From Cyanophora paradoxa CCMP329 (lineage: Eukaryota; Plantae; Glaucophyta): a stretch of 64,000 nt of DNA. Below are positions 5,629-64,000 of the stretch, one piece after another. The DNA lies in NCBI GenBank assembly GCA_004431415.1, contig QPMI01000029.1, positions 124,001 through 188,000 of the forward strand, in the 5' to 3' direction. The notes under the pieces are model-generated. The model had not been told where the DNA came from, searched no databases, and saw nothing but the letters and a program-made list of their open reading frames with translations. Made by a program: the position numbers and the translations under genes. How positions within the stretch are numbered: the stretch's first letter is position 1; each line of letters opens with the position of its first letter.

Positions 5629-5888
5629 ACAGGAAAATACTGGACGTTGAAAAATAGTGGAGCCGGAAATCTACTAAGTCCACTAATCTTGGACTGAAAT
5701 CTAATTCCCTGATGGTAAGCGGCCTCAATACTATACCGGTACCCCCCACAATTATAATTACAGCTCCATACAAGTCTGAAACTTTTAATTTACGATCCAC
5801 TAATTTCGGGCTCCAGTATTATGCCAATTTGTTTAAAGGGAGGGCCAAATTTTACGATCCACTTATTTCCGATCTGGTATTTTCCTGA
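5629..5888. mobile_element. Degenerate MITE-like element (CAGGAAAATAC...GTATTTTCCTG ends, internal TCCACTAAT motifs)
   Basis: Inverted ends and repeated subterminal motif; related copy at ~35,570-35,810; contains CCATACAAG, the reverse complement of the core of the 6,704 and 35,211 MITEs. Confidence 0.55.
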
Positions 5889-6117
5889 ACATGAAACACG
5901 GTACCGGTACAGTGCCACGGTGAGAGTCCACATTATGGGAGTATATTTTCAAGGCCGATAGGCTTATAATTACAGCCTGCAGTACAGGACTCCGACGGTC
6001 ACCGGCCCGGCGGGTCCGGATCCGGGATCGGAATCATCGTTGCATCGGACAGATCTGGAGTCTGGACTCCGGGACTCGACTCACTCGAGCCACTCGATGC
6101 GCATGAGCGCACGTGCC

Positions 6118-6315
6118 ACAGTGCTGACTCTGCAGTGAGTCTGCACTGAGCTCGAGTCGAGTCTGCAGAGTCTGCACTGACTCTGCAGTGTCTGCACTGA
6201 GTCTGCACTGACTCTGCAGGTGTGACTGCCTGCACAGTCTGCACTACTCTGCAGTGAGTCTGCACTGCTGAGTCAGTGGGGACTCAGTGCTGAGTCACTG
6301 CTGACTCAGTGCTGA
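6118..6315. repeat. Low-complexity quasi-palindromic array (CTGCAGTGAGTCTGCACTGA-like units)
   Basis: Repeated CTGCAG, TGAGTC and GACTC units in both orientations. Confidence 0.8.
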
Positions 6316-6354
6316 TCATGATTCATGAGTGCCCGGGGGGCCGGCGGGGGCCGG

Positions 6355-6692
6355 AATCGACTCGGCGACGACTCGGCGTCGAGTCGGCGAGTCGGGACTC
6401 GGGAGTTAAAAAAAAATTTTGAACCGTGTTTTTCGTTTAAATTCTCAGAGTCTCGAGTTTTGTACATGCATATGTAAATGCAGATCCCGATTAATATTCC
6501 CGACTCTACCGGCTGGTAATTTCCCGAGTCACGGAGTCCCGACTCCCGACAGGACCCGACTCCCGAGCCCCTCGGACTCTGGCTCGGAGGGCCGAGTCCC
6601 GACTCCCGAGTCCCGACTCCCGAGTGCCACGTCCGTTGGAGACTCGAAGAGTCGCCGAGTCACGTCAGAGCCTCCAGCTCGAGTCGGAGACT
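6355..6692. repeat. CCCGACTCCCGAG / GAGTCGGGA repeat cluster, possibly a foldback remnant
   Basis: Many GACTC/GAGTC-centred units in both orientations around an AT-rich spacer. Confidence 0.6.
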
Positions 6693-6703
6693 GGTACCGT
6701 ATA

Positions 6704-6964
6704 CCGTGTAACACTAAATTAACAGCCCGTTAATTAACAGGTTATAAAATCTGGCCCTCCCTTAGGCGAAATAACAGAGTCCCAAATTAACAGACTGAAA
6801 CATTTGGGCTTGTATGGGGCGGTAATCTTGGGGGGTAGATTGTATGGGACGACTGAACAGGAGCGAATTAGCAGAGTCCCAAATTAACAGACTGTGTCAA
6901 ATTTTCGGTCTGTTAATTTAGGACTCTGTTAATTAAGTGAGTCCAGTAATTATGTGTTACACGG
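6704..6964. mobile_element. MITE, Tc1/mariner-pogo type (TA TSD, CCGT termini)
   Basis: TA|CCGTGTAACAC...GTGTTACACGG|TA; 261 bp; repeated AATTAACAG motifs pointing inward from both ends. Confidence 0.85.
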
Positions 6965-7169: not shown

Positions 7170-7687
7170 ACAAGCGAGTCCCTGCGGAGCAGGAGTACCA
7201 TGGCCTTGGGTGTTGGGGCTTCGAGGCGTGAGGGTGGCAGTGTGGGCACTGTGTGGCACACTGGCACCGTGGCAGGCACTGGCAGCTCTTTGCGAGTTGT
7301 TTTTAAACGGGGGCAGATCAATTAGCCGCTCGCAATTGAAAGAATTGTTGGCAATCGTACGCGTTTGACGAACGTTTGGCCGATCACAACATCAATGATT
7401 GAATCACCAAAAAACTCTGTTCGTGTGAATCGCGATCGACGATCGATCAACGTCGACGTGAAGACGGCCGATTGGGCCCCGCATCGATATCTGTACACTT
7501 ACAGCACAGTTCTGTACCCTCTCACTTGAGTGTGTACCCTTGCCGAGTGGACCCCCCTATTTCTCCTCCCCCCTCCACCGTAACCGCGCGCGATTGCGGG
7601 CCCCGTTTTAAAACAAAGAGCGGCCACCCTCACGCCTTGAGACCCCAAGACCCAAGGCCACTCCTGCTCCGCAGGGACTCGCTTGTT
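7170..7687. mobile_element. Foldback element with ~90-140 bp inverted arms
   Basis: 7,170-7,315 (ACAAGCGAGTCCCTGCGGAGCAGGAGT...GTTTTTAAACGGGG) is the reverse complement of 7,599-7,687, apart from insertions in the left arm. Confidence 0.75.
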
Positions 7688-7695
7688 TCAAGTTA

Positions 7696-7753
7696 TTATC
7701 AACGTATATACGTATGTAAATAACATTGTCTTCAGGCCACGGTAGTCGTTGGC
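7696..7753. repeat. Dispersed repeat; inverted partial copies at ~29,500-29,520 and ~29,614-29,665
   Basis: TATCAACGTATATACGTATGTAAATAACATTGTCTTCAGGCCACGGTAGTCGTTGGC matches the reverse complement of the 29.5-29.7 kb segments. Confidence 0.8.
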
Positions 7754-9718
7754 TAGTGTACATTAAGCGCACAGACAGCAGTTGCGCTAGTTGCGGCATT
7801 TACGTCTTTACGTCGACGTACGCGTCGACGCTCGCCGAGGCTGAGCTTCAAAGGCTAAAACATGCTCAAGCTTGATACCGCCGCGGGGACCTTCTATATA
7901 TAGCTAGATATCGTTTCCCTCCTCGTCTTTGGCATTTCGCCGCTCGGCCCGTCAGCGCGCCAGCCCAACAACCACCCCGGCCCCAGCCCGCCGCCGCCTC
8001 TCTACATATAAGCCACTCTAGCCTATCATAGTATGGTCAAGCGTGACCCAGGCTCCTGTGCGCGGGCCAAGGCAGGTCGGACGCGGCGGATTGCGCATAC
8101 CGCAGACTCCCGGAGAGAGTCCGCAGTGCGCGCGCCATGCCATGATGGCAGGTCGGCCCCACTAGTGCTCAGAGGGATGGAGGAGTTGATCGAGGGGTGG
8201 GCGCATGGGACTGGCTATAGCTACGGCTATCACCGAAAACCATGTCTCCCCCACTCAGGCGAACCTCCCATATTGAGCGACCCATGGCCGGCATCTGGCT
8301 AGCATCTTCGGCTACTAGGCTAGTTAGCTGATCGGTCGGAAGGGCACGTCACGTAGAACATTGGTATATGTGCCGTGGTGTACCAATGCTACGTCGACGT
8401 CCACTTTTGCAAAAAAAGGGCCATATGCATGGCAGGTCGGACGTCCGACGGCCGATGCCGCACGCCACGCGATCGTCGCTTAGCTGCAGGTGCTTCTCGA
8501 TCGCATAATCATGAATTTTCATTTCGATTTCTGCGCGCAAATTTCTTTCGGTACGTGTACGCGGAACCTTCGGGACGTTGACGTCATCAGCAAATGCATG
8601 TGCTAGTATGGGGGCTGCCGGGGCCCGGGGAGCTTGCCCCCCGGCCCCTGAGTGTTGTCTTTTGAACGATTCGAGTCTCAGAGTCTAATCGTCGACCGTG
8701 TGGTCAAGTCAAAGAAAAGTTGACTCAGTGAGCTAGCCTTCAAGCTTGCGGGCCAAGCTGCGGCTACTCATCAGCCTGGGCCGCGCGGCCTACTAGTCAC
8801 TGAGTAAATTGCCGCCCAATGATCCAGTACTAGTTTGAGAAATTTTTAATTATAAATGCTTTCCTCGCGGATCAGACCTCGTTAAGATTCTTCAAGCTTG
8901 AAAAGCTTAAGGCGAGCGTAAACGCGAGCCAGAACCGAGCCGCTGAGCGTCACGGCGTTACCGAGGCATATATATCCGATTGATTCGCATAGTGCTAGCG
9001 CTGCATTCCTGGGATTCTTGGCCGAAATGGGGGAATTCCTCGGATGGGGACAACGCTGCAGCTGCAGGAACAAAGAAATGGAAACGCTGAAACGGCTGAA
9101 CTTCGAGATCTGTACATCCGTAGCCTGTAGGCCGCCGTCGCCCTCGCCGCCGCCGCTGCAGCCAGCGCGCGCGCACGTTCACGGTCCCAGGTCCGTCTTC
9201 GGCCGGCGGTGGCCACGACCACGACCGCCCGCGGCCGCACACCGACGCCCAGCCTCGGCCTCGGCCTCAGCCGTCGTCCCGCGGGGCCGGCTCCGCCCGG
9301 ATCCCCCCGCCCTCCGCCCCCGCCCCCGCCCCCGCCCCCGCCCCCAGCCCCGCGAGGGCCCAGGGGCCCCCGCGGCCGGGCCCGCCCCGCCCCCCGCCTC
9401 GCCCCCCGCCTCCTCCTCGCGCTCGGGCCCGTGCGAGCGCGGGTCGAAGTCGCTCTCGAAGGGGTGCACGTCCCCTGCAAAGATGTCAGCAGCAGAAAAA
9501 GGAGAAGAGGCGTCAGCCGACGATTAGAAATTAAATAGTATCGGACTCGCGATCGATAGGATTCCAGCGTAGTTCTTCAGGAGCGCATGAGAAGCATGCG
9601 AGGCTCTACATCAAATCTCACAGTGCAAGTCCTTAGCGTAAGGAACTTAAAAGGAACTTAAAAAGGAATTTAGCGTAAGCTCCATCATCAGGCTAAATCA
9701 AGTTCAAGATTAATTTAT

Positions 9719-9769
9719 TTTACTACCTACGGGGGGCTCGCCCCATGCACTGTAGTCTCTCAAAAAAGC
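9719..9769 (+). mobile_element. Extremely 5'-truncated non-LTR retrotransposon copy (3' hairpin + A tail)
   Basis: CTACCTACGGGGGGCTCGCCCCA..TGTAGTCTCTCAAAAAA matches the 3' end of the 37,142-39,068 element; flanked by TTAATTTAT at 9,710-9,718 and 9,770-9,778. Confidence 0.75.
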
Positions 9770-28656: not shown

Positions 28657-30194
28657 TGCGTACCCCTCGCGCGCCGTTCCCCTCTCCGTTCACTCCCGCC
28701 CCCTCCCCCTCTAGGGGAAAAAGCTAGGGGAAAGCTATAGCTAGAGCTAGAGAAAAGCTAGAGGGACTCAAGGATCCGGAGGTTCAGTTTAGCGCGAGAT
28801 TGAACGAGAGAAAAAAGGGGACGAAGAGGGGACTCCGGATAGGGGAGAGGGGGCTCGAGGGCTCAGGACCCGCCGCGCCGCTCCTCTAAATGATTCCCGG
28901 TCCGCATATATATTCAATTCAATAAATTATAATTCCAAACACGATGGGAGATGCCCTGGAGATAGCGCGATTGCGAGCTTGAGAATCCGGATAGAGTTTG
29001 CATAGATAGAATCCGGGAGAATGCCATGATAACGATGATGCTATCCTTGGCTTGGCTTGCATTTGCACATGTGCATGCATGCTTGGCTTGCAATTGGCCG
29101 CAGTGGCGTTACACCGGGGTACCGTCGTGCGAGCCCCACCCGCTCTACAGTGGAGACGGCTCTAGATCTCTCCCACTCGGACCGGAGCTTCCCACCGCGA
29201 CCGGCCGGGCCGGGGCCATGGGCAGACTCAGGGCAGGCATGCGTGACGGTGGGGAGGCATATACGTATACGTAGAGAGGCGGCGGGGGGGCTGGGGCCGG
29301 GGGGTTGTTGAGCTGGCGGGCTGGCGGCCGCGGGCCGAGCGGCGAAATGCCAAAGACGAGGAGGGAAACGATATCTAGAAGGTCCCCGCGGCGGTATCAA
29401 GCTTGAGCATGTTTCAGAATTTGAGCTCAGCGAGAGTAAATGCTGCACTGCGGCAACAAATGCAACTGCTGTCTGAGAGCGTAATGAACACAAGCCATGG
29501 CCAACGACTACCGTGGCCTGGCGACCCTGACGGACAATAATTGAATGTTATTTACATGCGTACCGTAGTACTACGGTATATCATAGTATGTGGATAGTAT
29601 AGTAGTATGTGTAAGTGGCCTGAAGACAATGTTATTTACATACTATGATACGTATATACGTTGATAGAAAAACGACCGTCGGACTGAGTCAAGCTGCCAG
29701 GCCGAACCCGGAAATCCCGTCAAGGTTGCCAAAGAACGCAGAGAATGAAACCTGAAAGCCGACAGTATTTGATATCCGATGATATCCGATCTGCCACCAA
29801 CAGTCAGAAGCGGAAACTGCTGCACTGCGCTGTACAAGAGGGAAAGTGCAAATAATAGACATGAATAAAGGGGATCTGATCTGTGATCTGATCTCTGATC
29901 TCTGAACATGAAAATAGTCTGGTGGGAGATGAATAAACATGCGATCGCAAAAAAGTCTGGTGCTCTCTGATCAAGGGGGAGGATGGTCCCGTAACGTACA
30001 CATAGACACACACACAACTCGCAGGGGAGCTAGCGGAAACGCAGAATAAGTGAATGAGCACGAATTCGAAGGCTGTACAAACGTGATCTTCGAAAGGTAG
30101 CTTAGGCAATTCTACACTACAACAGGCATTGTCAAGGCGAGGGGGTAGCTATATATAGCTGTACAAGCTGTACTCGAAACCACAGTACCCCTCT

Positions 30195-35210: not shown

Positions 35211-35470
35211 CCGTCGGGCACTAAATTACTGCGGCGTTAATTAACGCGGTTTCAAAAATGGCCGGCCTCTGAGAGAAATACCGCGGTACCAAATTAACGC
35301 GGTTTTAAAAATTTGAGGCTTGTATGGGGCAGTAATTTCAGGGGTACTGTATGGGGCGACTTCTCGCAGCAAATTACCGCGGCACCAAATTACCGCGTTT
35401 TAACAAACTTTTGGCGCGTTAATTTGGTACCGCGTTAGTTAAGTGCCCGCGGTACTTAAGTGCCCTACGG
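35211..35470. mobile_element. MITE, same architecture as 6,704-6,964 (TA TSD, CCGT termini)
   Basis: TA|CCGTCGGGCACT...AGTGCCCTACGG|TA; 260 bp; AATTA(A/C)CGCG subterminal motifs; shares the GCTTGTATGGGGC core with the 6,704 element. Confidence 0.85.
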
Positions 35471-35569
35471 TACCTGACATATTACCTGTAGGCTGTAGCC
35501 TGTAGGCTGTAGGTTGCGAGGATCGTCGAGATCGAGACTTTGCAGTATATACTGGGCGCTGATAGTTAG

Positions 35570-35812
35570 AAGGAAAATACTGGGTGCTGATATCGATAGT
35601 TAGTGGATCCCGAAATTAGCTTTAATTAGTGGACCGAAATCTTAAAAGAATATTGCATGACCCAGTCCACTAGCTATTTTGGGGCTCCACTAATTCTCTG
35701 GCGATGAGCTGCCTCATTCAGTACCCCAAAACTTACTGCCCCATCTAAGCCGGCGCCTGAAAAGGTTCCGGCCCAGTATAATATATACATGTATATTTTC
35801 CTGTTCCACGGT
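35570..35812. mobile_element. Degenerate MITE related to 5,629-5,888
   Basis: AGGAAAATAC...TATTTTCCTG ends; TAGTGGA/TCCACTA internal motifs. Confidence 0.5.
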
Positions 35813-36885: not shown

Positions 36886-36946
36886 GTGTGCTACTTTACT
36901 GTATTTTTGATTTGGGGTTCGCCCCACCGTAGTCTCTAAAAACAAA
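36886..36946 (+). mobile_element. Short 5'-truncated, internally deleted copy of the non-LTR element 3' end
   Basis: TGTGCTACTTTACTGTATTTTTGATTT + GGGGTTCGCCCCACCGTAGTCTCT + A tail; TSD TATACTAAGT at 36,876-36,885 and 36,947-36,956. Confidence 0.8.
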
Positions 36947-37141
36947 TATACTAAGTATTTCCCGACTTACTGAAGTTACAGTATACCGTATATATATAAT
37001 TATAAGTTTGGTTTTTGGTGAATTACCGGCCAGCGGGTGGCAGCGCGCAACGGCCAGCGCGCGCCAGCGCCGGCCACATGCATACTATTAAATATTACTG
37101 TCAGTTCATTATGTTATATAATTAGACGGATTCTTATTATA

Positions 37142-39068
37142 TTTTTTTTTTGAGAGACTACGGTGGGGCGAACCCCCCGTAGGTAGTGATATTAAAGACA
37201 ACAAAGCAATCACAAATCAAAGATACAGTAAACTAGCACAAAATATATACAGAATCAAGAGGGATCACGAGAAGGGACACGATCAGAAGAACGCAAAAGA
37301 TAAGGAGAACGAGCACGAGGAGAAGGAGTAGAAGAGCTCAAGGGCGTCGATGCAGAAGTACTAGTCACACTAGAACGACGAGGAGCACGGGGACGCAGCA
37401 AATAAGGAGAACGAGCACGAGGAACTACAGTCGAAGACGAAGATCTAGACGAAGACGACAAGACAGAGCTAACAGCAGAACTAGAAGACGTAGTCGCAGG
37501 AGGCAAAGGCGGTAGAACAGTAGGAGAGGCGAAACGTAGGACACCACTAGAGGGGAAAGTCGAAGCTGGCGGAGTGTCTAAACGGAATCGAGATTGTAGA
37601 GTTGGTAAAACAATGGACGGCTGAAGACTAATCTGAGGAACTGGGGACGACACGAGGAAAGGGGCAGAGCTCGGGTGCAGACTCGGAATCGGCAGTATAA
37701 GAGGAGGGGCGAAACGCAAGCCAGTAGTGACAGGGAAGGCAGACGATGGGGCTGAACCAGGCGGGAGAGGCAAATATAGCGAAGTAGAAGAGAGAGAAGG
37801 GTACACACGAGGAACGTCACCATACACAAAATACTCGCTGCCAAAAACTATACGGTCTGACGGTCGCTGAAGATAAAGAGGCGGAACTGCCTGAGGGCTA
37901 ACAGTGAGAGATGGAGGAGGAAGAGGCAGAGCTAACGACAAAGGGAACGGAATCAAAGGTACAGGGAAGGCATGGAATACACGAGGAACTGGAAGGTGGA
38001 GGGGCCAGTGCTCCTAACTAACATCGATGAAGCATCTGATGGAGGTGACGGCAAAACAACTGAGGGTAAACTAAGTTGAGGTGAAGCGAAGATTGATACA
38101 AGACTATCATGAATCAAAGGGGGCCATGCAGGAACCGGCGGGCGAGGTGGATCTGGCGGGACAGCCAGAGGGGAAGCCGAAGGTACAGGAGAGGAAAGCC
38201 GCAGGCGCCGAGACACATGGACAGGGGACGGATCGGCATCGGGAGGCAAGGTTGAATTCGACGGAGACCGGGGGCGGCGGATTCGTGAAACGGAAGGTAT
38301 CAGAGAAGGACTAGGGGGGGCAGGGAAGTACGGAGCCGCTGAGCAGGTGGCGACGGTGAGGGTGCAGGGGAGCGAATCCGTCGCAAAGTCGGAACAGGCT
38401 GACGGGGCTCGGCATATGTAGCCGCAGCTGCAGGAGCTGGAGCAAGCACTGGGGGTGCCGGATCCGGAGACTGGAGGCGGGGGCGCTGGGCAGGAGGCAC
38501 AGGATCTGGAGGATTCTCTGAACTAGAGGGGGTTCGAGGTCGGCGAACGCCACGGGCGTTAGCAGGATGTTTATCAGCCCGAACATGACGGTCACGATCA
38601 GCAGAAGACTGAAAGTTCTTCCCACAAATAGGGCATATTAATGTGGAGGCAGAAGCGGCGCTAGCGCTAGCATCGGCAGACGAGCTCAAACGAGAACTCG
38701 AGGGAGCCGGGACCGAAGCTGTATCAGCGCTAGCAGATGGCCTCGCAATGTGCTGAACTTGAGGATTCACGCCGACGCCATTAACTGTAGCAGCAGGCCT
38801 AGGGGTAGCGACTGCAGGGGGGCCCGGGACCGCGACTGCTGGGGGGCCCGAGCGCTGTAGAGGGATAGCTCCGCGCACAGAAAAGAAGCTCGCATCAAAA
38901 ATAGATTGAGGGGGGCTAGGGCGGTCACGTGACTCAGGGTTTGAACCATCGTAATCAGAGCCCTCCCCTAAATGCCGTAAACGAAGAAGCTCAATGCGCT
39001 CGACAGCAGGAGGCAACGTAATCTCGAGAATATCCAGAAAACGTTTCCACAGGTTTAGCAGAGCATTA
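37142..39068 (-). mobile_element. 5'-truncated non-LTR retrotransposon (1.93 kb) with poly(A), 16-bp TSD and a frameshifted ~600-aa ORF remnant containing a C2H2 finger
   Basis: ACGGATTCTTATTATA at 37,126-37,141 and 39,069-39,084; T-run at the left end. ORFs 38,300-39,016, 37,953-38,249 and 37,255-37,956 join through two single-base shifts. C2H2 finger CPICGKNF..SADRDRHVRADKH. Confidence 0.88.
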
Positions 39069-42700: not shown

Positions 42701-44533
42701 ATGGCCTGAAACAAACAAATAAGCAAGCACCAGCTCGTCCGAATCCATTCACACAGACCCCGCACAATTGCCCTTCGTATCCGTTGTTGCACTTGGACAC
42801 GTAGGGACTTTCTGTATCCACTAGGAATGCCAGCAGGTTCCGTCGCGCAGCTGCAGTACAAAGGGAAGTATTCTGACCTCCAGCTCCACTCGAATCCGAC
42901 GCGTTTCGAGGACACGTGTCGTTAGAAAGTAAAAACGTGCTTGAGCTCACGATCGAGGCTGGTGGCAAGCCCCCGAGACAGCTCTCCTTTCCGTTCAGAC
43001 ACTCTATGAAAACGTTCGGGTCGTATGTGCTCTGGAACCAGCCCCTGCAGATATATATCAGCACGTAGAAAAACAATTGCTGCCGGCGTCGCAAGCTTAA
43101 GCTTGCGAACAGAACACTGGCATACTCTTTTGCGTAAAGTTTTGCGCCGCCATCGCAAATGGCGCCTTCAGGGCATCGACGGCAAGCCGCGTCCTGCGGG
43201 TTGAGGCTGTAGAAATTGGGCCCACTGCGAAAGGACAGCTTTTAAAACATGTGTTGTAAAGAAGAACGCTTCACAATTCGAACGAACCACTCGCTGCAAA
43301 TCCTGGCCGCCTTGTCGAGGATTTCGCCAGGAATGCACTCTCGCAGGAAGACAGAGAGCGGGGCCGGTTGCAGCGGCCGATCCGCGACCGAGAAGCTCAG
43401 ATTGTACGCCGCGCCCGGCATCTCGATTAGGCGGACGTCAGAGAGAAAGGCAACGCCGTTCAGCGTGGCGTTTGTAGTCGTTCCTGTGTACATGCGATCG
43501 CGAGTTGAGTCAGACATCAGCTTGTTAAGCATCGAGACGCTTAAGGCTTGTACGCGACGCGCACCTGTCAACGAGGTCGATGTGCTCGTTGTTGAGATTT
43601 GAATGAACGATCCAGAATCCGCCACGATGGAACTGCATGATTATCTTCAGGATTCGGCAAGAGAGATCTTTAATTTGCACGTGCACGAACCCGTAGGCAT
43701 CCTTCATCGTCACCTCGAAAACAATGGACTTGCCGCTCGCTACGTCAACGGGCTGGGACCGAAGCTCCGGCACGATGCGTTCGGTCGGCGTGGCGCATGC
43801 GGAGCCGTATGCCGCCGCGTTCTCCGAGTAGGCGGTGCACGCATGTGAAGAGAATCCCGTGCACACGGAGAGGTCCGGTGTGTTTACGTACACTCCGCCC
43901 CCGCCGACTTGAGCGCGGTTCATGAGGACAGAAGAATTCGATAACGACGCGCCGCCGCACGCGTCTTTCTCAATAAACAGTCCGGCGCCAAGCGATGCTG
44001 CGTTTTGCCTTACTGCGATGGAGTCTAGGCTCATGTTGCCTCGTTTGACGAACACGGCTCCTCCTCTCACTGCAGTGTTGTTCAAGAGCGTGCAGAAGGT
44101 CAGCTTCAATACTGCACTGCTCGCGGCATGCACTCCCCCGCCCTCAGCTGCGCCCTTCATTCAATACTTCGCCCCGGTGCAGGTTTCGGGGGCCATGGCC
44201 ACTCACTCGCGGTATTCGCCTCCAGCAAAGTCTCGTGCAAGAACAGCTGCCCGTCGGCCTCCGTCCCAACTGCGCCTCCCCGGCCCCGAGCCGCATTCTC
44301 CTTCAGGGTCGATGCCGAAATCCAGACCGAAGAGTGTCCGGCGGCGTACACTCCCGCAGCGTCCCCTACAGCCGCCTGCCCCTCCAACAGCGTCGGAAAA
44401 CCTGCACGATTTCCGGTAATGCTGCTGCCGTCGATTCGAACCGCTGCGTGTCGGTCTGCTGCAACGCCGCCCCCCGACACTCCAGCGACGCAGGCCGAAA
44501 CGCTTGATCGAGAAAGCAGCAGATGCACGCGGT
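39738..44533 (-). CDS. Polymorphic-membrane-protein/pectin-lyase-repeat, Cys-rich, multi-pass membrane protein; 5' part cut off by the viral insertion
   Basis: N.A..GG(A/G)V beta-helix repeats (ENAARGRGGAV, NNTAVRGGAVFV, NRAQVGGGGVY). LRECIPGE, CRRCPEGAICDGG, CNNGYEGQLCGVC. Several TM exons (IVLVFFFQPMII, YGVGVPAGTAVFLW, FSFLY, LILHMRIQP). The reading frame is open up to the junction at 44,533. Confidence 0.8.
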
Positions 44534-44816
44534 ACACATAGTAAAATGCGGAGTTTTAACCCTCGGCTTATCTTAATTGATTTTGTTGATATATCTCGTA
44601 TATTCTATTTCAATCAATCGATAATCTGTGTATATCTTATCGAATATTCATTTATTTCGATTATTTTGTATTCTTTTCGATATTTTATCGTAAATTTCTC
44701 TTATTTTCCGATTAGTCTTACTGAGTCTATCGATAATCTGTATATATTTCCGAATAATATAACTGAATTTCAATTAGATCTTGCCTCTGGTTAAAACTCC
44801 GCATTTTACTATGTGT
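44534..44816. repeat. Terminal hairpin: perfect 28-bp inverted repeat closing a ~227-bp imperfect AT-rich palindrome
   Basis: ACACATAGTAAAATGCGGAGTTTTAACC (44,534-44,561) is the reverse complement of 44,789-44,816; the inner arms keep pairing with many mismatches. Confidence 0.95.
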
Positions 44817-45058
44817 GATTGGTCTGTTTGTTTAATTCTTTTAATCGATATTATATTCATGTACTTTCTCGATTAAATTTAATTAAATTTAATTCATTTA
44901 ATCGGAAATATATCGCTAAACTCGATTAAGATCCATAAATGATTCATTTGTTAAATAAAATAAATCGATCTCTTATTGAATTCAATCGTAATTATACATG
45001 AAATTGATATGTTTTTATCATGTTTTAATGATTCTAAGGGGGGACCCTTAGAAAATTG

Positions 45059-45402
45059 GGTGTCACAGGTGTCACAGGTGTCACAGGTCAATCCCAAACT
45101 TTTGATAGTTGATTTTTATATATGTGAAAACTTTGGGATAGACCTGTGACACCTGTGAACAACACCATTTATGGTAAGATCCTCTTTTATAATGAAAAAC
45201 TCAGTAACAATAAGTAAGAAGTTTATCTATGTAATTCTACTTGAATAAACAAATGAAATAATCGAGTGTCACAGGTGTCACAGGTCCATCCCAAACTTTT
45301 GAGAGTTCATTTTTATGCTATAGAAAACTTTGGGATAGACCTGTGACACCTGTGACACAAACCATATTCAGTAAGGACCTCATATATTGTGAAAATCTCA
45401 GT
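45059..45402. promoter_or_regulatory. Two tandem copies of an iteron palindrome (GTGTCACAG)2-3 - AT spacer - (CTGTGACAC)2; putative replication origin
   Basis: Copies at 45,059-45,158 and 45,266-45,358 within a ~200-bp tandem unit; third copy at 62,036-62,152. Confidence 0.7.
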
Positions 45403-45789: not shown

Positions 45790-46188
45790 TCAAAACGGGA
45801 ATCTATCATGTTTATGTCTCTCAGTCTTCTCAAATGTTAAGAAATTCATTGTTTTATCGATCTCATCAGCAACTGATTGTGTTTTATGCTGAGCTTCTTT
45901 ACCACAACTGAATATATCAATTGCTAACATGCCTTCATTGGAATAACAATGAGCTGTGCAATGGCTTTCATCTAACAGCAGAACCAAAGCAAAACCAGGA
46001 GGTGATAGTTTGCCATCAAATATCTCACAATGCTTATGAACAATCCTAATACCTTGTCTCAATACTGCTTGTTCAAGGGTTCCCATAATCCAATTACCTA
46101 GGAAGCTAACATGCTCATAACCTGTTGCTATAGCTGATTTAGCCTTGTAATCAAGCATAACATGAAAGCCTCTGTATTTAGTCTCCAT
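45790..46188 (-). CDS. speD: S-adenosylmethionine decarboxylase proenzyme (prokaryotic class 1B type, pyruvoyl-dependent) or neofunctionalised homolog
   Basis: 132 aa; G.H.MLD, GF..VLLLDESHCTAH (E|S autocleavage motif), LAIDIFSCG. Confidence 0.85.
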   Translation of the reverse strand: METKYRGFHVMLDYKAKSAIATGYEHVSFLGNWIMGTLEQAVLRQGIRIVHKHCEIFDGKLSPPGFALVLLLDESHCTAHCYSNEGMLAIDIFSCGKEAQHKTQSVADEIDKTMNFLTFEKTERHKHDRFPF

Positions 46189-48563: not shown

Positions 48564-51500
48564 TTATAATACTGTGATATTTTTAATTTGGTCTATTTGA
48601 CTTTGGAGATTCTCACAGGTTTGTGTTAAATCTTTGCATTTTTGGGATAACTCCTTCACTGCTTCAATGAGAACCGGAATTAAACCTGTGTATGCAAGGG
48701 TCAAATAATTTTCGTGATTTTTACCTACTACTTCTGGTATGACTTTTTCGACATCTTGCGCAATCAAACCTAAGTTTACTTTCTGTTTTCCATCACCAAT
48801 CTTTTTGTAACTCACACCCTGTAATTTCTCAATTGCTGAAAGGGCGCCGGTTATATTTTTAATGTCGGTTTTGTATCTTCTATCACTTCCTTGTGTAAGC
48901 CATCCCAAAAGTAAACGTCACCATTATTATAAAAAGCTTGCATTGTTATATCATTTCCTGCTCTAAAATGGATCATTTCGTAACCATAACCTTTAATGTA
49001 TGTAGTTGATGATGAACCGAAATAAACTCTCCCATTACCTTCATCTGATGTTATCCAAGTTCCGGTTGCCCAAGTTGTGCGAGCATCTTTACTATATACA
49101 TTATCCCAACTGATCATACCATTTGCTGGTGAGGTTCTCCCTTTTTCTTTCGTCCATCCAACCATACCAATATAACATCTCCCTTTTCTTGCAACAAATC
49201 TAACATGTGAGAAATAATCACAAGCAAAAGAAGCCCACGCCAAACCATCGTGATAATCTGTGGTTCCATAATTTGAGACAGTCTGATAAGTATTAACTCG
49301 CATAATGTGGAACCATCGACCTGCTCGATAGCCTCCAATATCGAAATATCGACAATTCGACCAACACAAATATTGAACATGACATGTTTGCATATTTGCT
49401 GGGACTTCAATTTGCGCCCAGTCTCCACTTGTTGAATCACCTTCAACGATACTATAAAATCCATCCACAGGATTAGAAACAGAAGCTGTCCAACCTGTCC
49501 CCCAAGAACCACTAAATGATAGACCACCACTACCTGTTCCACTCCAAGTATCAAAACCTATAATGTTTCCAACTAAATTTGTTGTTAGTAGATTTGGTTT
49601 ACTATAAATGTTATCCCAAGAAACATAGCCTGTGTGACCACCATAACTACTTCCTGTCCAAGTGCGAGTAAATCCAATGCCCATTATGTGAACTCTTCCT
49701 ACCTTTGGAATAATACGAAGGCGAATAAAGCGATTTCCCAACATAATAGGGACATTTTGTAAACCATTGTGGTTTCCATCTGGTGCGCTTTCATATTGAT
49801 GATAACTATTCACTCTTGCAATGAAAACCGCATTACCTTGTCTATTGATTCCCCAAATCTCAAAGTAACGACAATTTACCCAAGGGAGATATGTTAAGTG
49901 GGCTGTTCCCGTATATAAATCAGTGGGTATTGTGTAATCAACCCATGAGCCGTTAACAACAGTATCGCCACTCTCATTATTGTAAGCATACCCACCGTAA
50001 TTATAGTAGGGTTCCCATGCTGTTCCACCTTCAAAACCCCAACCTCCTGCATAATTATGTGGCGAATTTCCTGCTACCGAAGCATCATACTCTACACATC
50101 TAGGCATTGTTTTGTCGCCAAATTTATAATTTGTAGTTGCATTTATTGAACCTCCGTAAATGATTGTTCCGCTTATAGTCGGAGCGGACACAGTATTAGT
50201 AACTGCAAGGTTGCCGTTTTCATATGATTGTAAAATTGTAGCATCTGCTGAGTTTCTGAATACAACACACGCATTATCGTTATTAGGTCTACCTCGAATA
50301 TATGTAGCATTTGCATTTGCAAAATAGAACCGCTCGTAGTTATCTGTTGATTTTAACCATGTATTAATTGCCCATGTTGCCGTTCCTGGAAGGTCTGCGG
50401 CTGTAATTAATGCCGGACGACTGTAAATATTATCCCAACTTATCAAACCATTCGCTGGCGCTGTTCTACCTACTTCTTTTGTCCATCCAAGCATTCCAAT
50501 GTGAGTTCGTCCTTTCTTTGCGAAAATTCCAATATATGAGAAACTCCCACAAAATACGGATGTCCATAATAAACTCGAATGCCACAGTGTGTCGGCGGTG
50601 TTTTGAATATTTTGATATGTATTAACTCTCATAATATAATTCCATCGTCCATTGCGGTATCCCTGAATATCGAAATATCGCCCATTCGACCAACATAAAT
50701 ATTGAATGTGACATGTTTTCATTCCTGCTGGAACTGCACACTGCATATACCCATCGCCGCTTGCATCGTCTGTTTGGTTGCAATAAAAACCCTCTACTGG
50801 GTTATCTGTTGTGGGTTTCCATCCTGTTGTCCAAGCGCCGGATTGGAATGATACACCTGCGCTATTCCAACCACTCACCACATCAAAATCGGAATATTTG
50901 CCGACAGGATTAAAAGCGATATTATCATAATGAATTAATCCAACATCATTATCGGTTGCTCTTTGTCTACTCCAACCAAATACACCCGTAAAATAAATGC
51001 GACCTTTCACACCTTTTACCACAATCTTTTTATAGAAATCACAGTTTATAGAAGTATAGATAATAGCATTATAGGTACCATCTTGAATTCCGCTATCTTG
51101 TATTGCTTGATAGTGATTAACACGTTTTAAGAAATGCTGATATCCATTAACAGTTTCACCGTAAATATCGAAATATCTACAATTATGCCAATTTAAAAGT
51201 TGAATATAAAACGATTTCATGCCTTCTGGAATTGTCCAACGCATCCAACAACCCGTAACATCTGCGTCATTCTCAGGTGTGGTGTAACATCCTGTTTGTC
51301 CCGTTCTATGTCCTGTCCAATTAACATTCCAATTATTTGCGCTTCTATCTGTCGAAACCACATCTAATTGGTCGAAATCATAACCTTTTGGTATTGTGGT
51401 TCCACCAATTTGTAGAGTGGTAGCATTCACAGTTCCTGTGACAGTTCCACCTGTAAGAGGCAAATAGTTTGCAAGAGCTGTTGTTAACTCTGCATCAGTT

Positions 51501-54500
51501 GTATAACTGCTTAAATCTGCAGAGGTAAGATACCCTTTATTGGTAAGGTAATCATCTGTGACCACACCTGAAAGGGTGGTATTGTGTAAGTTTTTTGCTG
51601 CCATCCTCTGATTGACTTCTAAGGCTCCACCTGATGTCGTTTTTATCCATGCAATCTCACATTTCCCATGATCATCTGTGGGTTGTCCTGCTACAGGAAG
51701 GTAGTTTACAACTTTCTCCCTTGTGAACACAATTTTAGGTCTTGCTCCATCATATGCGCTTTGATCTGTAACGTTTATTTGAATAGCTGCTGAAAAATCG
51801 GCTACTTGTCCTGTTTCACCTGGGTGATAATTCGTAACATAGATACTGGGGAAAGTATCATTTACTCCTACATTGAAATCACCATCATAAACTCCATTTA
51901 CAATTGGATCCCTGGGTAATCTTACTGCAAGAGTTCCCTCCATTGGAGTGCCTGTTTGACCTGTAAAAGTCCCATTGAGACTAACATAATGATCATTCAA
52001 ATGCAATCTTTCAGGTGTATTACTCGATTGGTAAAGTGTGACTCCATTGAAAACATTTCCGATTGCATTCAACTGTGCAAACACTGGTTGTTGATCGATT
52101 TCACTCCAAGGGTGTCTGTGATTGCAGTTGGTGATCTGGGAATAATCATGACTGTGTGGATCAGGTGGAAAGGTTAATGGTGGATTTGTTATATGCTCCC
52201 ATAAATGCTCATGAGAACTGGGTGGGAAGGTTAATGGTGGATTTGTTATATGCTCCCATAAATGCTCATGTGCAAAATCTGTTATTTCATCTTTTGTGTG
52301 GGTGTGGTTATCGATCCAACCTAAAACTACATTGGATGTAGGATGATTTGGTAGATTCGCTTCAATATTCACAGTCAAATAGTCGACTTCTAGATTACTT
52401 CCATAAATATTACTTGCCCATAGGTTACTTGTGAAAATGTTACTTGTATAAAGGTTACTGGTGTAGATATTGGAAGTGACTGTAAGGTTTGTGTCATTTT
52501 TGATCACAAAAAGAGAAAGAATATTTGTGAGTTCACCTTCATCAATATATCCTTGATCTTCTAGATAATCCTCTGTGACCACTCTCGAAATATTTTCATT
52601 GTGTATGTTTTTTGCAGCCATCCTCTGATTGGCTTCCAGAACCCCACCATAATCTGTTTTAATCCATGCAAGCTCTGCCCTTCCATAATTATCATTTGCA
52701 GTTCCCACTATGGGAATGTAGGAATACTTATCTCGACTGAAAACTATCATTGGTCTTGAGCCATCTAAGCTGCTTACATCTGCTACATGAACCTGTATAG
52801 CAGAGTTGTAATTTTGGTAGGTTGCTGGGTCTGTTGGGACTCTGAATGTATCTGTGGGAATGTCAGCCTCCATGTAGCTTGACACAAAGATATTTGGTAT
52901 GGTTGCTCCTGGTGGTGGTGGGGTTTCAAAAGAGCCTGGTAATGTCCTAATATGAAGTGGTCCTCTCATAGCTGAATTTGCAAGTGTCCCATTCACATGT
53001 ACATAGTGTTCATTCAAAAAGATTCTTTCTGGGACATTACAAGTCTGATAAAGAGAAACCCCCAAGTTATCAAGAGGCTCTACCTTTGCGAATTCTGGTT
53101 GGTCATTGATCTCATCCCAAGTATGTTCATGTTTGCTTGGTGGGAACTCAGTAGGTATCCCATCAATTTCTCCCCAATCATGCCTGTGATCCTCTGGTGG
53201 ATACTTTTGAGGTTTGCCTAAGATCTCATCCCAATCATGATTGTGATCCTCTGGGGGATACTTTGCAGGTTTATTATTAATTTGTTCATAATCAGGGAAG
53301 AACTCCAGATCTCAGGTCGAAATCCATCTGGTAACAATTCCTCATGGGTTCATAAGGTTGCTCATAGTCAACAGCTGGTGGATCATGACCATCTGGTAAA
53401 TACTCCTCATCAGGTTCATAGTTCTGTTCATACTCATATTCTTGTGGGTCAAAACCATCTGGGAGTATCTCCTCCTCATTGGGTCAAACTGATCATACTC
53501 ATATTCTTGTGGGTCGAAACCATCTGGTAAATACTCTTCCTCATCTGGAACGAATTGATATTCATCAAGCTCTAATATATCGACTTCAGGAGGTAAATAC
53601 TGCTCATCTATTTGCTTTCTGGGTTCAATTATAGTTTATTGCGAACTTGCTCCCAACTAACAATATGCTGCCAAAGGCTACATCTTCAGTTGCTGTGTAT
53701 TCTCTTCCAGGCTGTTTCTTTGGTGTTAAATCGGAGGTCCATTTGGAAATGGAATAGGGAATGGAACTGTTGGTCCATTGGGACCATAATGCTCAATTAT
53801 TTCCCTTAGAGTTTTCTCACTCACAAGTTTCTCCCCATTTGCATACACATTGCTGCCATGGATATTTCGCCATTGCCTGGTTCTAATTCCAAGGTCTTTC
53901 ACATTGCTATACAAAGGCAAAAGGTGCCTATCCATTTCGACTAAATCAGGATGTAAATGGATTGCTACTGGTTGACTGGGGCTACTGTTGATTGTAATTG
54001 ATGGCTTTTTTTGATGGACATCTTTTGGAGTAAAAAACCCAAAAGGCTCATTCCTCGCAAAGTCATATGTAATATCCTTGGGGTATACATCATTTGTGTA
54101 GGAGACCTGATTTGTGTTGGCAATGGGACCCACTTGCAATACTTGGGGGACCTCAGCTTTTGCAGTGCTGCCCTCATTGTAAATTCGCAAAGCTGTGTTC
54201 TGTTTGCCCTGCTCATCTTGAACATTGAAAATCAATCGACCACTATCGAACCTGGAAGGTATATCTGGGTGAGTGCCACTGGTTTTTAGTTTCCTAGGTC
54301 TCCTTCTTGTTGCTTTGATCTCTGCCACTTGGTTTGCTTTCACATTACCCAAACTAAAAGCAACACTGACATCCTCTTTATTTGGATCAGTTTGATTCAC
54401 AGATAAAGCATGCTCCCTTGATTGAGTCTTTGAAGAATTATCAGAGCTGTGGTCAATTGAAACTGAACCCTTTACTTTAATATTATCAAAGTTCACATGC

Positions 54501-54605: not shown

Positions 54606-56160
54606 ATGCCTCTCAGGGTTTGTTTAAGTCTTTCTGGCGGGGGTGCAAGGGGCATTATCATAACCAGGCTGCTCAAAGAAATCGAAAATCGAACTGGCAG
54701 AAGAATAATCGATCTTGTGGATCTTGTAAGTGGAACTTCCACTGGTGGGATCATTGCAATAGGTTTGAATATCAGGCATCCTGATAAACCAGGTGAACCT
54801 AAACTGACAGCAAACGATCTACACAATATTTACCTAGCTCAACTGCCCTTGATTTTTGCAAATCCTCGAAATATAATCGAAAATGCCCTTTTTAATACAA
54901 AGTATGATGTGGGACCCTTGGAGACTGCAATCAATTCAGTTACTGGTGAATCACTAATACAGGATTCCCTAAAGGACATTGTGATTACATCCTTTGATAC
55001 TCAGAATATGAAACCAATATTTATCACAAATGACAACAACTACAACTTTATGCCTTGTAAGATTGCTGCTAGGGCTACTTCTGCTGCTCCTACATATTTC
55101 TCTCCTGTAAGCATTGTTGATTTCAATCGGGGAGTATTTGTCTGTCTCATTGATGGTGCCATTTCGGGAAACAATAATCCCAGTGTGTGTGGTTACAGCC
55201 ATGCAAAGAAGATTTACAGTGATGATGATGATATTATAGTAATAAGTATCTCTTGTGGTGAGGTGGACCCACATTTAGAGTCTGATTATGTGGGTTATGC
55301 TTATGAGACTGTCAACAGCTGGGGAATTCTCTCATGGATTGCCTCAACAGATGGAAGCCCATTGATTAACATGCTCATGGCTGCAAGTGAGCTTTCTGCC
55401 CTTGATAAGATGGAGGAGTTGTTACCCTACAACTATGATCAGGATTATGGGAGATACTATAGGCTGTCAGTGCCTCTTCCAAATCATATAGTAAGCTCCC
55501 TTGATGACACTTCTAAGATCCCAGATATGCTAGCATTCACTGAAAGCTACATAGCAGCAAACAATGATATGATTAATAAGCTTTGCAGCCTTCTAGTAGC
55601 AAACTATGAACTTAAGAACCCTACAAAGGCTTACATCTCATCCACTCTCACTACATCACCTCCTTTGGATGCTAATTGGTATCAGCTTGCAGATGATGCC
55701 TTTACTGCCTCATCCTCTGTGACAGGTAAAGAGCCTTTCATGGCAAGACCTTCAGCATTTGGCTGGGAAGCTGGAGCCTTTGCTCCTGAACAGATATGGG
55801 AAACCCCCACTGAATACCTTCAAGTTGCTTTCCCATATACTTTTGAACTCTCCTCTGTGATTGCCTATGGATCAGGGACACCAATGCTTTTATTAAGACT
55901 TTCAATGTGGCAACATCCACTGATGGATCAACTGGTCTTTTATTCGATCAGATGGGCAAAACAAAATATATGTCTGTGAGAACATTAACAATGCTCACAA
56001 CTCTGGTGATGTGGCTCTATTGAGTGGATTTCCTCTAAGCATCAAGGATGCTTTTTACATAGGTTTCTCTCTCAGAATCAAATATATTCGCATTTATCCC
56101 CTTGTGTATGTGAATGCTCCCACAATGAGAGTTGATTTCACAGGTGCCTTTATTCGATAA
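54606..56160 (+). CDS. Patatin-like phospholipase with C-terminal F5/8 type C (discoidin)-like domain (frameshifted near 55,880)
   Basis: GGGARG, GTSTG, ARATSAAPTYF, LIDGA; then FTASSS...W.A...EYLQV...V..YG; after the shifts ATSTDG and IKYIRIYP.....MRVDFTG. Confidence 0.85.
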
Positions 56161-58173: not shown

Positions 58174-59540
58174 ATGGATATCACTTCCACTCTTCAAAGA
58201 CTTTCGCTGAAAGAAGCCCTAACAACCCCAGAGGAGGCGAAAGCCTTTTTCCTGGATAACTCCCTTATGCTTGGTCTCGAATCCAAGTCTAAGCCAGTTC
58301 TTGTTGTTGTGAATCCCAGCAATACTTTTGAGAATAATGTAGGAAATCGCATTTCCTTCAAGCTACCTCGCTACAATTTCTGTGGAAAACTCGAACTTGC
58401 TTTCGACCTTCCTGCCATCACTTTTGCTGGTGATACTGATCTGGTTCGCAATGGATACACTCGACCAGTTGGTGCTTTAGTTCAGCGACTTGAAATTACC
58501 TATGGATCTTACACCTACCATATTCCATCTGATTTCCTTGCTCATTTCCCCCTGGTCTATTATTCGGAGGATCAACTAGCTAAAAAGAAACGCTCAATGG
58601 GCATGGTTCATGGTATCCCTGCTCATGGAACTAACCGACTTGGTGGCTCATTTTTCGTTGAAATCCCAGTGCCTTGGCTAAATCACTACCTTCCCTTGGT
58701 GCTTTATCTGGTGAAATGGTTGTTACTGTTTGGTTTAAGGATGCTGGTAAGGGTTATGTTGAAACTTCCTATGGTGGTCGCTCTCTCCCTGTTGTTGGTG
58801 GGACAGTTGCTGATAAGACAGAAGATGATGGTCTTGGTGATACTGCTAATGCTACACTTGCCCATGTTGGTCAAAACATCACCACTTTCAGTCTTGGTGC
58901 AACAACCCCTGTCATTTCTATTACTTCTCCTCGCCTTTACATGCATGCTATCAATGTTTCTGATGAGCTTTTCGCTACTGTAATTGAAAAAGTAAAGACT
59001 ACTGCATGGCTATTCCCTCCCTTGATATTGGATTTGTAGATGCTAGTGCTTTCCCTGCCAAGGGCAATGCCCAACCCAATCGAATTAACCTCTCTCAAAT
59101 CTCAGGTCTTGTATACGCTCTGCTTGTTCAGTTCGTGATCATGAAACTGTTGACAAATCCAATGGCTCCCACAGTGTTCTTAAGACCTATGCTAACTCCA
59201 AAGAGATAACATTCACAACTGAAATAAATGGACAGCGACTTTTTGCCACTGAGCAATTTCCCTACTCAAAGGTGCTGAGCTAATTGCTGATGCCTTCAAA
59301 TGCTCTAACATGGATAAGGTTGCTGATCGCTATGTCCTTTCAGGATTGCCTTTCTGCCTTGATGGAGAAAAGGCGATTCGAAATATTGCCCAGTCTGGTT
59401 ATGTTGATTTAACAAATTCCTCCTCTTCATTCCTCACCCTCTACATGCCTTCAGATAAGGTAATCGATGTTAATGTTCGCGCTCTCATGCATAGCTTTAT
59501 TATTGTCGACAAAGATGGTCTGAGACGTATCAATCTTTAA
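58174..59540 (+). CDS. Major capsid protein, double jelly roll, NCLDV-like; several frameshifts
   Basis: GNRISFKLPR...LELAFDLP...GALVQRLEITYG; FVEIPVPW...LPLGAL..EMVVTVWF; PRLY; PFCLD...SGYVDLT...VNVRALMHSFIIVDKDG; ~455 codons, between the minor capsid and ATPase genes. Confidence 0.82.
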
Positions 59541-60370
59541 ATGTTACCATTTTCAGTCTCCCTGCATTATTTTTATCTGTCTTTATTTAGGAAGATCTAC
59601 AACAATGACTATACCAGTTCTGATCTGGATGAATTTGTGGCTGGTGAAATGATAGAACCCCCTTTCAGACTACTCATACTAGGTAAAAGTGGATGCGGAA
59701 AAACTGAAGCCGTAAAATATTATTTGAAACAGCTGCATGATGCCAAAAAGATTGATACAACCCTTATTATATCCGCTACCTCATTCTCACATTTCTGGGA
59801 CAAAGCTGCTACTGTTCAACTGGGTGCATGGGATCCCCAATACATGTCGAAAATTATAAAAGAAAGAGAGGCAAAAAGGGAGAAAGGAGAAGAACTTAAC
59901 CATATGCTGGTGATTTTAGAGGATATGATAGAAAATGACCAGCTGGATCTCAGTCGAGATAAAACAGTTGGAATGCTTTATGTTCGTGGCAGACATGTGA
60001 ATATATCAATTATAACTATCTCTCAGAAATTACGAAAGGTTGCAAGTGTAATTCGCTGCAATAGTGATATAGTAATTATGGTTTGTGCAAGCAATCAAAA
60101 AGAGCTGGAAGCATTTGCAGAGGAGTTTTCAACTTTTCCTCGCAAAGAAGATTTCTATCAACTGTTTGAAGAGTATGTCACTCATATCAATTCCTTGTTA
60201 TACATCTTTCAAGTATAATGTGGCTACTATGTGATAAAGCCGATTTAGTTGGAGATTTCGATTTTCCTCGCTTCCACAGGAAGCCCAAGAAGAAAGAAGA
60301 TGAACTGAAACCACCAGAAAAAGAGGAAGCCCCTAAAGAAGTGAAAAGCCAAGTCCATAGCAATAAATTG
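59541..60370 (+). CDS. A32-like (FtsK/HerA superfamily) genome packaging ATPase; start and end affected by frameshifts
   Basis: Walker A GKSGCGKT, Walker B LVILEDM, A32 motifs RGRHVNISIITISQ and IRCNSD. Confidence 0.92.
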
Positions 60371-60422
60371 ATGCGATATAAACGCGGTTTATAAAATTAT
60401 CTCTCATTCTAATAAAGATACA

Positions 60423-62035: not shown

Positions 62036-62152
62036 GGTGTCACAGGTGTCACAGGTGTACAGGTCTATCCCACCGATTTTCAAAATCATTTTTTATGTTG
62101 ACTTTCCTGGGATGGACCTGTGACACCTGTGAACAACACCATTTCAGTAAGG
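62036..62152. promoter_or_regulatory. Third iteron palindrome, immediately downstream of the D5 primase-helicase
   Basis: GGTGTCACAGGTGTCACAGGTGTACAGGTCTATCCCA...TGGGATGGACCTGTGACACCTGTGAACAACACCATTT, homologous to 45,059-45,170. Confidence 0.75.
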
Positions 62153-62199: not shown

Positions 62200-64000
62200 T
62201 CACATCCTTCCATTGTCTTCTTGAACCCTTGTTATCTTTCGAAGTCCAATGTAGCCCTTGCTCTGGTTCCAGAATTCGTTTAACCTCTGATTTAACATTG
62301 AAGATTTCCCTTACTCTTTCATAACAGATACACATTCAACTTTATCATCTACACTTTGTATGATCTGTAAATGATATCATGGAAACAAAGTCGTTAGCAT
62401 TATGTGTAACCTCGAAATTATCTCGAAGCCATTCACCAATCTTGTCATTTTCAGCTATAAGTTAATTCCCTGTTCAATAATCGATTGAGGGGGACTTCTT
62501 AAGATCTCTTCAACCTCTTTGTTCTTCCACATATCCAGTAATATCTTCATGTGAGCCATCTTATACTCATCATCATTGTGAAGAAGTGTGAACAGAGTTG
62601 GATCAGCTTTCTCTGACCAGCTTCAGGCTTCTCTCTGAAATATTGTGATCTCTGGTATGAAAGTCTTCTTTGAATTGCGAAGTCTGGTTTATTAATAGTC
62701 AAATTGTCATTAGTTGTAATGTAGACCTGAAACATTGGGTAAGGATAACTGGATCTTTGAACAAGGCTCTCACAGTCATTTCATTTCCACCTGTGACCTC
62801 CTTAATCTTGGAGATCTGCAGTTTATCACCATCTTCAGCCTCATTACTGAATACAAGTCGCTTTCAAGGAGTTTGGCAAGTTCAGGAGTAGCCTCTGATG
62901 AGTTCTTTTTAGGCTTAGTCCAATAGGATATTTCGAGAGGGCTGTAATAACGACCAGATATCTGTTTGCAGTATTCCTGAACAAGTGATTTACCATTAGC
63001 ACCAGCACCAGTCCACATATAGAACTTCTGGGATTTAGTTGATCCACTAAGGGCAATTGCAATGGATGCCAGAAGATACTTTCGCTCTGCTGGATCATCC
63101 ACAATCTCTTTATAAATCTGATTTAGATGCTCTATTTTCTTGGGGTCTACATTTTCAGTATAGTCATAACCCACAGTCTTGCTCACCATATCTTCCAGTT
63201 TACCCTTTCTGAAAGTCATAGTGGTCAGATCAAATACACCATTTTCGAATCCAATCACATATGGAACAGTGTCAATCTTCTCAAAGAATTCATCATCATT
63301 CAGCAGTGGGACCAAGTCAGTCAGAAGGATTTGCGAAATCCTGATTGTTTAAGGTTTTGGCAATGGTCATCAATGTTTTGGATCTTTCTTCGAAAGTTGC
63401 TTTGTTTCCTCATCCTTTAAAGCTCTTTGACTATAATGCACAGCCCTTCCAAGGTATTGGGGGCAACAAGACGGCTTATATCTAGGTAAATCTTTAGGTT
63501 TGTGTCATCATGCTCCAAATCCCAGATCAGTATTGAGTTTGAACCATGACTTTTTGGAGTATCTCCATGTATGTTTAAGAACCTCTTTCATACTAAACTC
63601 ACATTCATAATGAGCGCCACCAGAACCAGCGGATTTATCTATAAGATTGAAGATATCAGATTGCATTCCAATGCAGATGAATCGTTTTTTGCAATTTCCA
63701 CTGTAGCTTGACACAATGTATTTGTTATCATCTCTTTAGCTTTCATAACATACCAGTTATTCGATTCATGTGAACCATTGCAGCATGGGCAATTGAGTCC
63801 CTTGTTAGCAGCATCAAAGTTAAAGCCAAGTTCAGTTTTAGAGATTATATTGGGATGCATAAATCCATACCACCAGCTCTTTGATAATATTGTTTTCCAG
63901 TTCATCATGTGAGGTAGCATTAGCAGTATACTCACTCTTATAGATGTAGTTATCTATTATCCACTTTTGAAGTCATCAGTAGGCTCATTGAAATCACAGG
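62200..64000 (-). CDS. D5-like primase-helicase (SF3), 5' part outside the window; multiple frameshifts
   Basis: D5_N (DTVPYVIGFENGVFDLTTMTFRKGKLEDMVSKTVGYDY), Walker A WTGAGANGKS, ATPELAKL, C-terminal KGYIGLR; upstream CPCC..SH zinc motif. Confidence 0.9.

Follow-up and report, generated by a model that had tools for sequence, protein, structure and literature searches.

The locus at positions 44534–44816 raises the question of how the end of an integrated DNA virus is built and how such an end could be copied. The window, that is, the whole stretch of 64,000 nucleotides of Cyanophora paradoxa CCMP329 analysed here (contig QPMI01000029.1, positions 124,001 to 188,000; positions given below are those of the window), contains a virus-like element that begins at 44534 with an inverted repeat. 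The first-pass annotation had described this repeat as an opened hairpin of about 283 bp, paired incompletely along its length like a poxvirus telomere, and had regarded such an end as untypical for polinton-like viruses (PLVs).

Junction, stem and loop

The GC content is 65% in the 300 nt to the left of 44534 and 28% in the 283-nt unit. Twenty-two sequencing runs are listed, the stretch is present in 20 of them, and the contigs of four runs (X1, X7, X9 and X16) were examined. These four runs share identical contigs and possibly derive from the window's own strain, and thus they are not independent. The host flank (43528–44533, − strand) is GC-rich and is found at single-copy depth (41–108). 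A contig of 1878 nt at the same single-copy depth matches 44260–44533 with 50 differences; in all four runs the match stops at 44533, and 737 nt of the contig are left over. We read this contig as a host paralogue without the insertion. Since the paralogue match ends at 44533, the insertion point should correspond to the first base of the outer arm of the repeat. According to the GC shift and the end of the paralogous contig, the unit starts at the insertion point as had been proposed.

The host flank has reading frames on the − strand that reach the junction, and one of them remains open over 124 codons counted from there. The interrupted sequence (43528–44533) reads as a repeat protein rich in Gly and Ala; it belongs to a small gene family, in which two diverged host paralogues are about 80% alike, and shows no Pfam match. 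At the boundary (44530–44559), the single-copy junction contig ends at 44559 in four of the four runs, which suggests another insertion sharing the last four host bases, by chance or by target preference.

A perfect 28-bp inverted repeat opens the element, as the first-pass annotation had noticed. The outer arm is located at 44534–44561, its first base being the first viral base, and the perfect inner arm is located at 44789–44816; the spacing of the perfect arms is 227 nt (no strand is assigned to the arms, the loop or the other repeats of the element). The 283-nt unit was folded as DNA, resulting in −46.2 kcal/mol for the + strand (z −10.2) and −51.1 kcal/mol for the − strand (z −10.9), and none of the 200 shuffles was as good in either case. 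The 28-bp stem is the longest perfect inverted repeat in the window among arms less than 600 nt apart. Scanning the window with the stem motif gave two matches only, which are the two arms, and the unit is single-copy in the window. The arms go on imperfectly to about 47 bp with 81% identity: the outer extension (44562–44580) pairs with 44770–44788, the imperfect portion of the inner arm (44770–44816 as a whole), via pyrimidine mismatches. Both halves of the unit are T-rich on the + strand (AT skew −0.35 and −0.23), and 44 of the 80 mismatches in strict register are pyrimidine:pyrimidine, in accordance with the earlier description.

An 82-codon ORF across the loop (44546–44794) was rejected because it has no Pfam match and its frame is shifted by a common one-base insertion variant. 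The Rfam scan gave nothing on the 283-bp unit and only sub-threshold miRNA-like matches on the palindromes at 45.1–45.4 kb. The phage DNA search gave one match of 29 bp, by chance.

The loop (44581–44769) comprises 189 nt, is AT-rich, and is T-rich on the + strand. The arms had been supposed to keep pairing throughout this interior. In strict register, 33 of 113 positions of the inner 227 nt are paired compared with 31.8 ± 4.5 in shuffles, and 866 of the 2000 shuffles reach this value. The inner 189 nt folds at chance, shuffles being as good in 59 of 200 cases (+ strand) and 27 of 200 cases (− strand). With gaps, the self-complementarity of the inner 227 nt, which includes the 19-bp arm extension, is above shuffles (1 and 3 of 2000 reach the score), and 30 of 2000 reach it when the CG-centred 6-mers are fixed. 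For the inner 189 nt, the gapped self-complementarity is marginal (61 of 2000) and is at chance with the CG-centred 6-mers fixed (501 of 2000). The best local match between the halves of the unit is a direct repeat of 57 nt (approximately 44590–44646 and 44702–44755). In a true inverted repeat, one half is expected to be T-rich and the other half A-rich.

The CG dinucleotides in the loop are present mostly in a TCGA-like context and are spaced about 20–22 nt. The four inner left CG motifs are each mirrored on the right, at most 2 nt off the stem axis. With this tolerance, which was picked after the data were seen, 314 of 100,000 random placements match, and 2 of 81 axis positions work, one of which is the stem's own. 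Helical phasing of the motifs is not significant (581 of 5000). The CG-motif array extends beyond the inner arm up to 44987, within a segment (44817–45050) of 24% GC. The CpG observed/expected ratio reaches 2.2 within the unit and 2.1 over this next 234 nt, compared with 0.18–0.45 in the remaining element. As for the paired blocks listed earlier, the CG motifs indeed mirror about the stem axis, whereas the bases between them pair only at chance, and the loop shows no pairing beyond the motifs. The inner pairing is at chance and the apparent pairing comes from the mirrored motifs. Therefore, the unit is a stem and a long loop with a dyad-symmetric motif array, not a 283-bp paired hairpin, and pairing along the full length in the manner of poxviruses is not supported.

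The viral element and its copies

The visible element extends from 44534 to the window end (19.5 kb, about 39% GC), its right end lies beyond the window, and several of its genes are in pieces. The first recognisable viral gene encodes S-adenosylmethionine decarboxylase (45790–46188, − strand; PF02675, E 3.9e-11). It is followed by a likely fibre gene (48567–52969, − strand), in which a 1372-aa ORF with internal 1329-nt repeats (48851–52969) adjoins an endosialidase-type fibre chaperone domain (48567–48899; PF13884, E 7e-18); it resembles a phage fibre in a eukaryotic virus. A patatin-like phospholipase (54606–55979, + strand; PF01734, E 1.2e-20), an A32-like packaging ATPase in two pieces (59541–60388, + strand; PF04665, E 3e-13) and a D5-like SF3 helicase region in pieces (62717–63453, − strand; PF08706, E 1.4e-9) were also identified. 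Long relatives of the D5-like helicase carry an AEP primase domain.

Five pieces at 58174–59540 (+ strand) likely form an NCLDV-type double jelly-roll major capsid gene. The language-model features of this candidate fall into Capsid_N clusters (0.97), and the recognition value is 1753, under the tool's 2300, which is a moderate signal. A 456-aa relative (P0167, 64%) is present in the eukaryote protein set. No Pfam match and no PDB sequence match was obtained for the candidate, and two single-sequence structure models, one of them for this protein, were unusable (pLDDT 34). Because of the A32 ATPase, the D5 helicase and the likely NCLDV-type capsid, the element is assigned to the PLVs. It is a multicopy integrated polinton-like virus, and the 283-bp unit is its left end.

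The Pfam search for enzymes took in the main ORFs and 77 further open frames of at least 48 aa between the large ORFs. No match to a polymerase, RVE, tyrosine recombinase, HUH, protelomerase or resolvase was obtained in the visible 19.5 kb; the first-pass annotation had suggested looking for HUH, tyrosine recombinase, protelomerase and Holliday-junction resolvase genes. Neither pPolB nor the RVE integrase, the hallmarks of Mavericks/Polintons, is found in the visible 19.5 kb, where the D5 helicase is present. HUH and VLTF gave no match in the window.

Relatives were sought in IMG/VR. The stem motif gave 0 matches there, and the ATPase, D5 and the protein P0154 as single queries gave no relatives. 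An alignment search with the ATPase yielded three viral loci and one metagenome locus with 29–32% identity (the metagenome scan covered 16 of 64 parts), and no comparable stem is present at these four loci. The D5 alignment search yielded 544 loci, of which 80 were kept, many of them labelled as giant-virus contigs. A perfect 28-bp repeat within 400 nt occurs at four of the 84 relative loci. The one examined among these four, an inverted repeat at 11767–12141 of L005, was rejected: the contig is giant-virus-like, the repeat lies at its end and overlaps an ORF, and it probably has no relation to the present stem or arose in assembly. Neither IMG/VR nor the 84 loci yielded a close relative whose end is visible.

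Contig depth is only a rough guide here and gives no copy number. Contigs with a variant at 44827 begin 26–31 letters to the left of it and run from part of the inner arm into the viral interior; their depth is about 24–92 times that of the single-copy junction contig. In three runs, a left-arm variant with a one-base insertion in the outer-arm extension (44562–44580) shows about 34–42 times the single-copy depth. The interior viral genes show 35–56 times (X1, X7 and X9, at places with one or two contigs) and 122 times at one place in X16. Thus, as far as depth is a guide, many copies have the stem linked to viral sequence, and its depth does not clearly exceed that of the virus. An excess of depth at the terminus over the interior genes is seen in X7 and X9 (about twofold) but is absent in X1 and X16; as a sign of two ends it was dropped, being inconsistent between runs. 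An X9 contig at about 11 times the single-copy depth fits both sides but not 44632–44734, which indicates that the loop centre diverges first.

Further repeats are present in the window. A self-palindromic unit of 9-bp repeats occurs in two copies at 45059–45402 (45059–45205 and 45266–45402), with 32–35-bp arms and a 23-nt spacer, and a third copy at 62036–62144 adjoins the 3' end of the D5 gene. As two copies are located inside the left end and one beside D5, they enclose the capsid and accessory genes and leave the replication gene outside. Outside the element, imperfect inverted repeats of about 300–400 bp (7697–8010 and 29266–29666) surround a 21.6-kb stretch of 60–75% GC, and this very GC-rich stretch is possibly another large integrated element. 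MITE-like short units with inverted ends are located at 5836–6763, 7170–7686, 35317–35751 and 36914–37176; in the last, arms of 37 bp are separated by 189 nt, and the right one is similar to 9714–9767.

Fold-back priming and other explanations

We tentatively propose, with a probability of about 0.45, that the left end works as a fold-back, self-priming end. First, the viral end would be released in single-stranded form. The bottom strand, whose 3' end is at 44534, would then pair through this end with the inner arm and leave no overhang. The 3'-OH of the folded strand would face the viral interior at 44817, and it could prime copying without a terminal protein. The loop would be mostly unpaired, and its motifs, continuing beyond the stem, would act as putative binding sites of an initiator or integrase. 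Finally, the integrated duplex form would be restored when the hairpin is opened again, through nicking or recombination by an enzyme that the window does not show. The geometry of the pairing without overhang follows from the sequence, and from this geometry we infer its use.

The z values of about −10 on both strands and the start of the outer arm exactly at the boundary argue for fold-back priming, as do the D5_N and A32 matches together with no polymerase match in the visible part. Since no protein-primed polymerase is found in the visible part, priming without a terminal protein would suit an element with a D5-type helicase. Against it stand the results that no nickase, resolvase or integrase match is present in the visible 19.5 kb and that the loop is long and pairs at chance, unlike the tight palindromes described in the available part of a preprint (10.64898/2026.07.28.741278). 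The earlier model of a viral end is thus retained in so far as an integrated virus ends with this unit and folding back is a tenable reading of it, whereas full-length pairing is not supported.

It is possible, although rather doubtful, that the unit acts as double-stranded DNA only, as a dyad-symmetric array of sites, at an origin or for recombination, to which the D5 helicase or an integrase would bind. In that case, the 28-bp arms would be inverted binding sites, and a single-stranded hairpin would not be formed. The CG motifs mirror about the axis while the intervening bases do not pair, and the CpG-rich array continues to 44987 inside a CpG-poor element. That the array runs on beyond the stem is accounted for equally well by a binding site in double-stranded form. 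Inverted repeats have been proposed as origin and recombinase substrate in PLVs with D5 and tyrosine recombinase, according to the part of the study available (PMC11296320). However, 28 bp paired perfectly from the first viral base exceed the need of a binding site and match the need of a self-priming end, and no recombinase match is present in the window.

We regard it as unlikely that the unit represents a MITE, with terminal repeats of 28 bp, which inserted at the end of a founder virus or turned into this end and then multiplied together with the virus. The size would suit a MITE, as would the short terminal repeats, and the window contains several other short, unrelated units whose ends are inverted (three of those above, at 7170–7686, 36914–37176 and 35317–35751). 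No TSD of at least 3 bp flanks the unit, the only match being 2 bp with one copy inside the arm. A stray MITE is disfavoured because the inner arm joins the multicopy viral interior and the unit has no such TSD. In addition, the CG-motif array runs on from the unit into the virus, the left-arm variant (34–42 times) is not above the interior genes (35–56 times at the places with one or two contigs), and no other start of the viral sequence is visible, host DNA stopping at 44533. A stand-alone, TSD-flanked MITE had been named as what would speak against a viral end; the unit lacks the TSD and, by rough depth, shows no excess over the viral genes, and it occurs once in the window.

The least probable explanation is a free virus with covalently closed, mismatched hairpins like those of poxviruses, in which a nick at the stem base and fill-in would give the integrated form: the order of outer arm (at the junction), loop, inner arm and unique DNA agrees with it, as do the AT-rich composition and the mismatched extensions to 47 bp, the motifs are mirrored about the axis, and the capsid and D5 look NCLDV-like, but two thirds of the unit show no pairing beyond chance, no Holliday-junction resolvase or protelomerase match is present in the visible part, and, as a weak point, no flip/flop form was seen in the four runs. 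No strand-changing joint at the hairpin is listed in these runs, in which the contigs there are about 60 nt and too short for a flop isomer. A PLV-sized virus with an NCLDV-type capsid and D5, whose closed hairpins of about 283 nt were opened at the stem base and left flip/flop copies in the genome, is improbable. If this were true, such a PLV would show poxvirus ends in miniature and in an integrating form, and could serve as a model of how those ends arose.

Comparison with known viral ends

In the case of parvoviruses and AAV, extended terminal palindromes serve rolling-hairpin replication. The order of arm, inner part, inverted arm and unique DNA is the same here, and in both cases the 3' end would prime into the genome. 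Unlike in these viruses, the inner part does not form a paired T or Y, no HUH Rep match is present in the visible part, and the element encodes a D5 helicase, a packaging ATPase and probably a double jelly-roll capsid protein.

Poxvirus ends are closed hairpins in two isomers, which are cut from concatemers by the A22 resolvase beside a resolution sequence, as described in the available part of PMC8956199. They share with the present element an AT-rich imperfect inverted repeat at the genome end, an A32 ATPase and a D5-family helicase. In contrast, most of the present unit is unpaired, no resolvase match is present in the visible part, and the element is integrated.

In PLVs associated with entomopoxviruses, the end module consists of inverted repeats, a D5 primase-helicase and a tyrosine recombinase, and the repeats are proposed as origin and as substrate for integration by the recombinase (PMC11296320, available part). 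D5-type replication and inverted repeats are common to both, whereas here no tyrosine recombinase match is present in the visible part and the repeat lies within one terminus. The NCLDV-like PLV groups, namely the Mriyavirus relatives, Zora and Zephyr, are similar in the PLV-sized genome, the NCLDV-like capsid, the A32 ATPase, the lipase and replication by a primase-SF3 helicase, as far as the preprint could be consulted (10.64898/2026.06.19.733378); they differ in HUH and VLTF, for which the window gave no match. Hairpins go unmentioned in the main text of that preprint, and an end of the present type is not described in the available parts of it, of 10.64898/2026.10.13.758929, of PMC12220804 or of PMC11071308. 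No report of a long-loop terminal fold-back in a PLV, or of a rolling hairpin in connection with a polinton, was found in a literature that was mostly non-subscription.

The closest case is found in Halocafeteria seosinensis. According to the available part of the preprint mentioned above (10.64898/2026.07.28.741278), terminal palindromes occur in endogenous virophages (subtypes 1, 2, 5 and 6) as well as in PLV subtype 4, where they sit within TIRs adjoining TSDs, together with RVE integrases. Elements with such ends preferentially have replication genes other than pPolB, and hairpin priming was proposed by analogy with parvoviruses and poxviruses. Thus, a hairpin end cannot be called unprecedented for PLVs, contrary to the earlier view. 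The present unit resembles this type in its position, as an inverted repeat with which a small integrated DNA virus terminates, in its association with a non-pPolB replication gene, and in the same proposal of hairpin priming. The palindrome illustrated in the preprint is 52 nt, and its screen used arms of at least 20 nt and a gap of at most 10 nt; cases with longer spacing are possible there. Here the perfect arms are 227 nt apart and enclose a mirrored motif array, and the unit is not a tight palindrome of that kind. Compared with the part of the preprint available, terminal palindromes and hairpin priming are known, and the 227-nt spacer with mirrored motifs is new. Since the perfect arms are 227 nt apart, a screen with a gap of at most 10 nt would miss the present unit, and fold-back ends of this shape escape such screens.

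A tight palindrome reads alike in both orientations, whereas the asymmetric long loop found here does not. Because the loop is asymmetric and tens of copies are present in one genome, hairpin transfer predicts flip and flop isomers that can be counted. The hairpin model is thus made directly testable in a long-read assembly. The left end described here bears on how the ends are copied in PLVs without a protein-primed polymerase.
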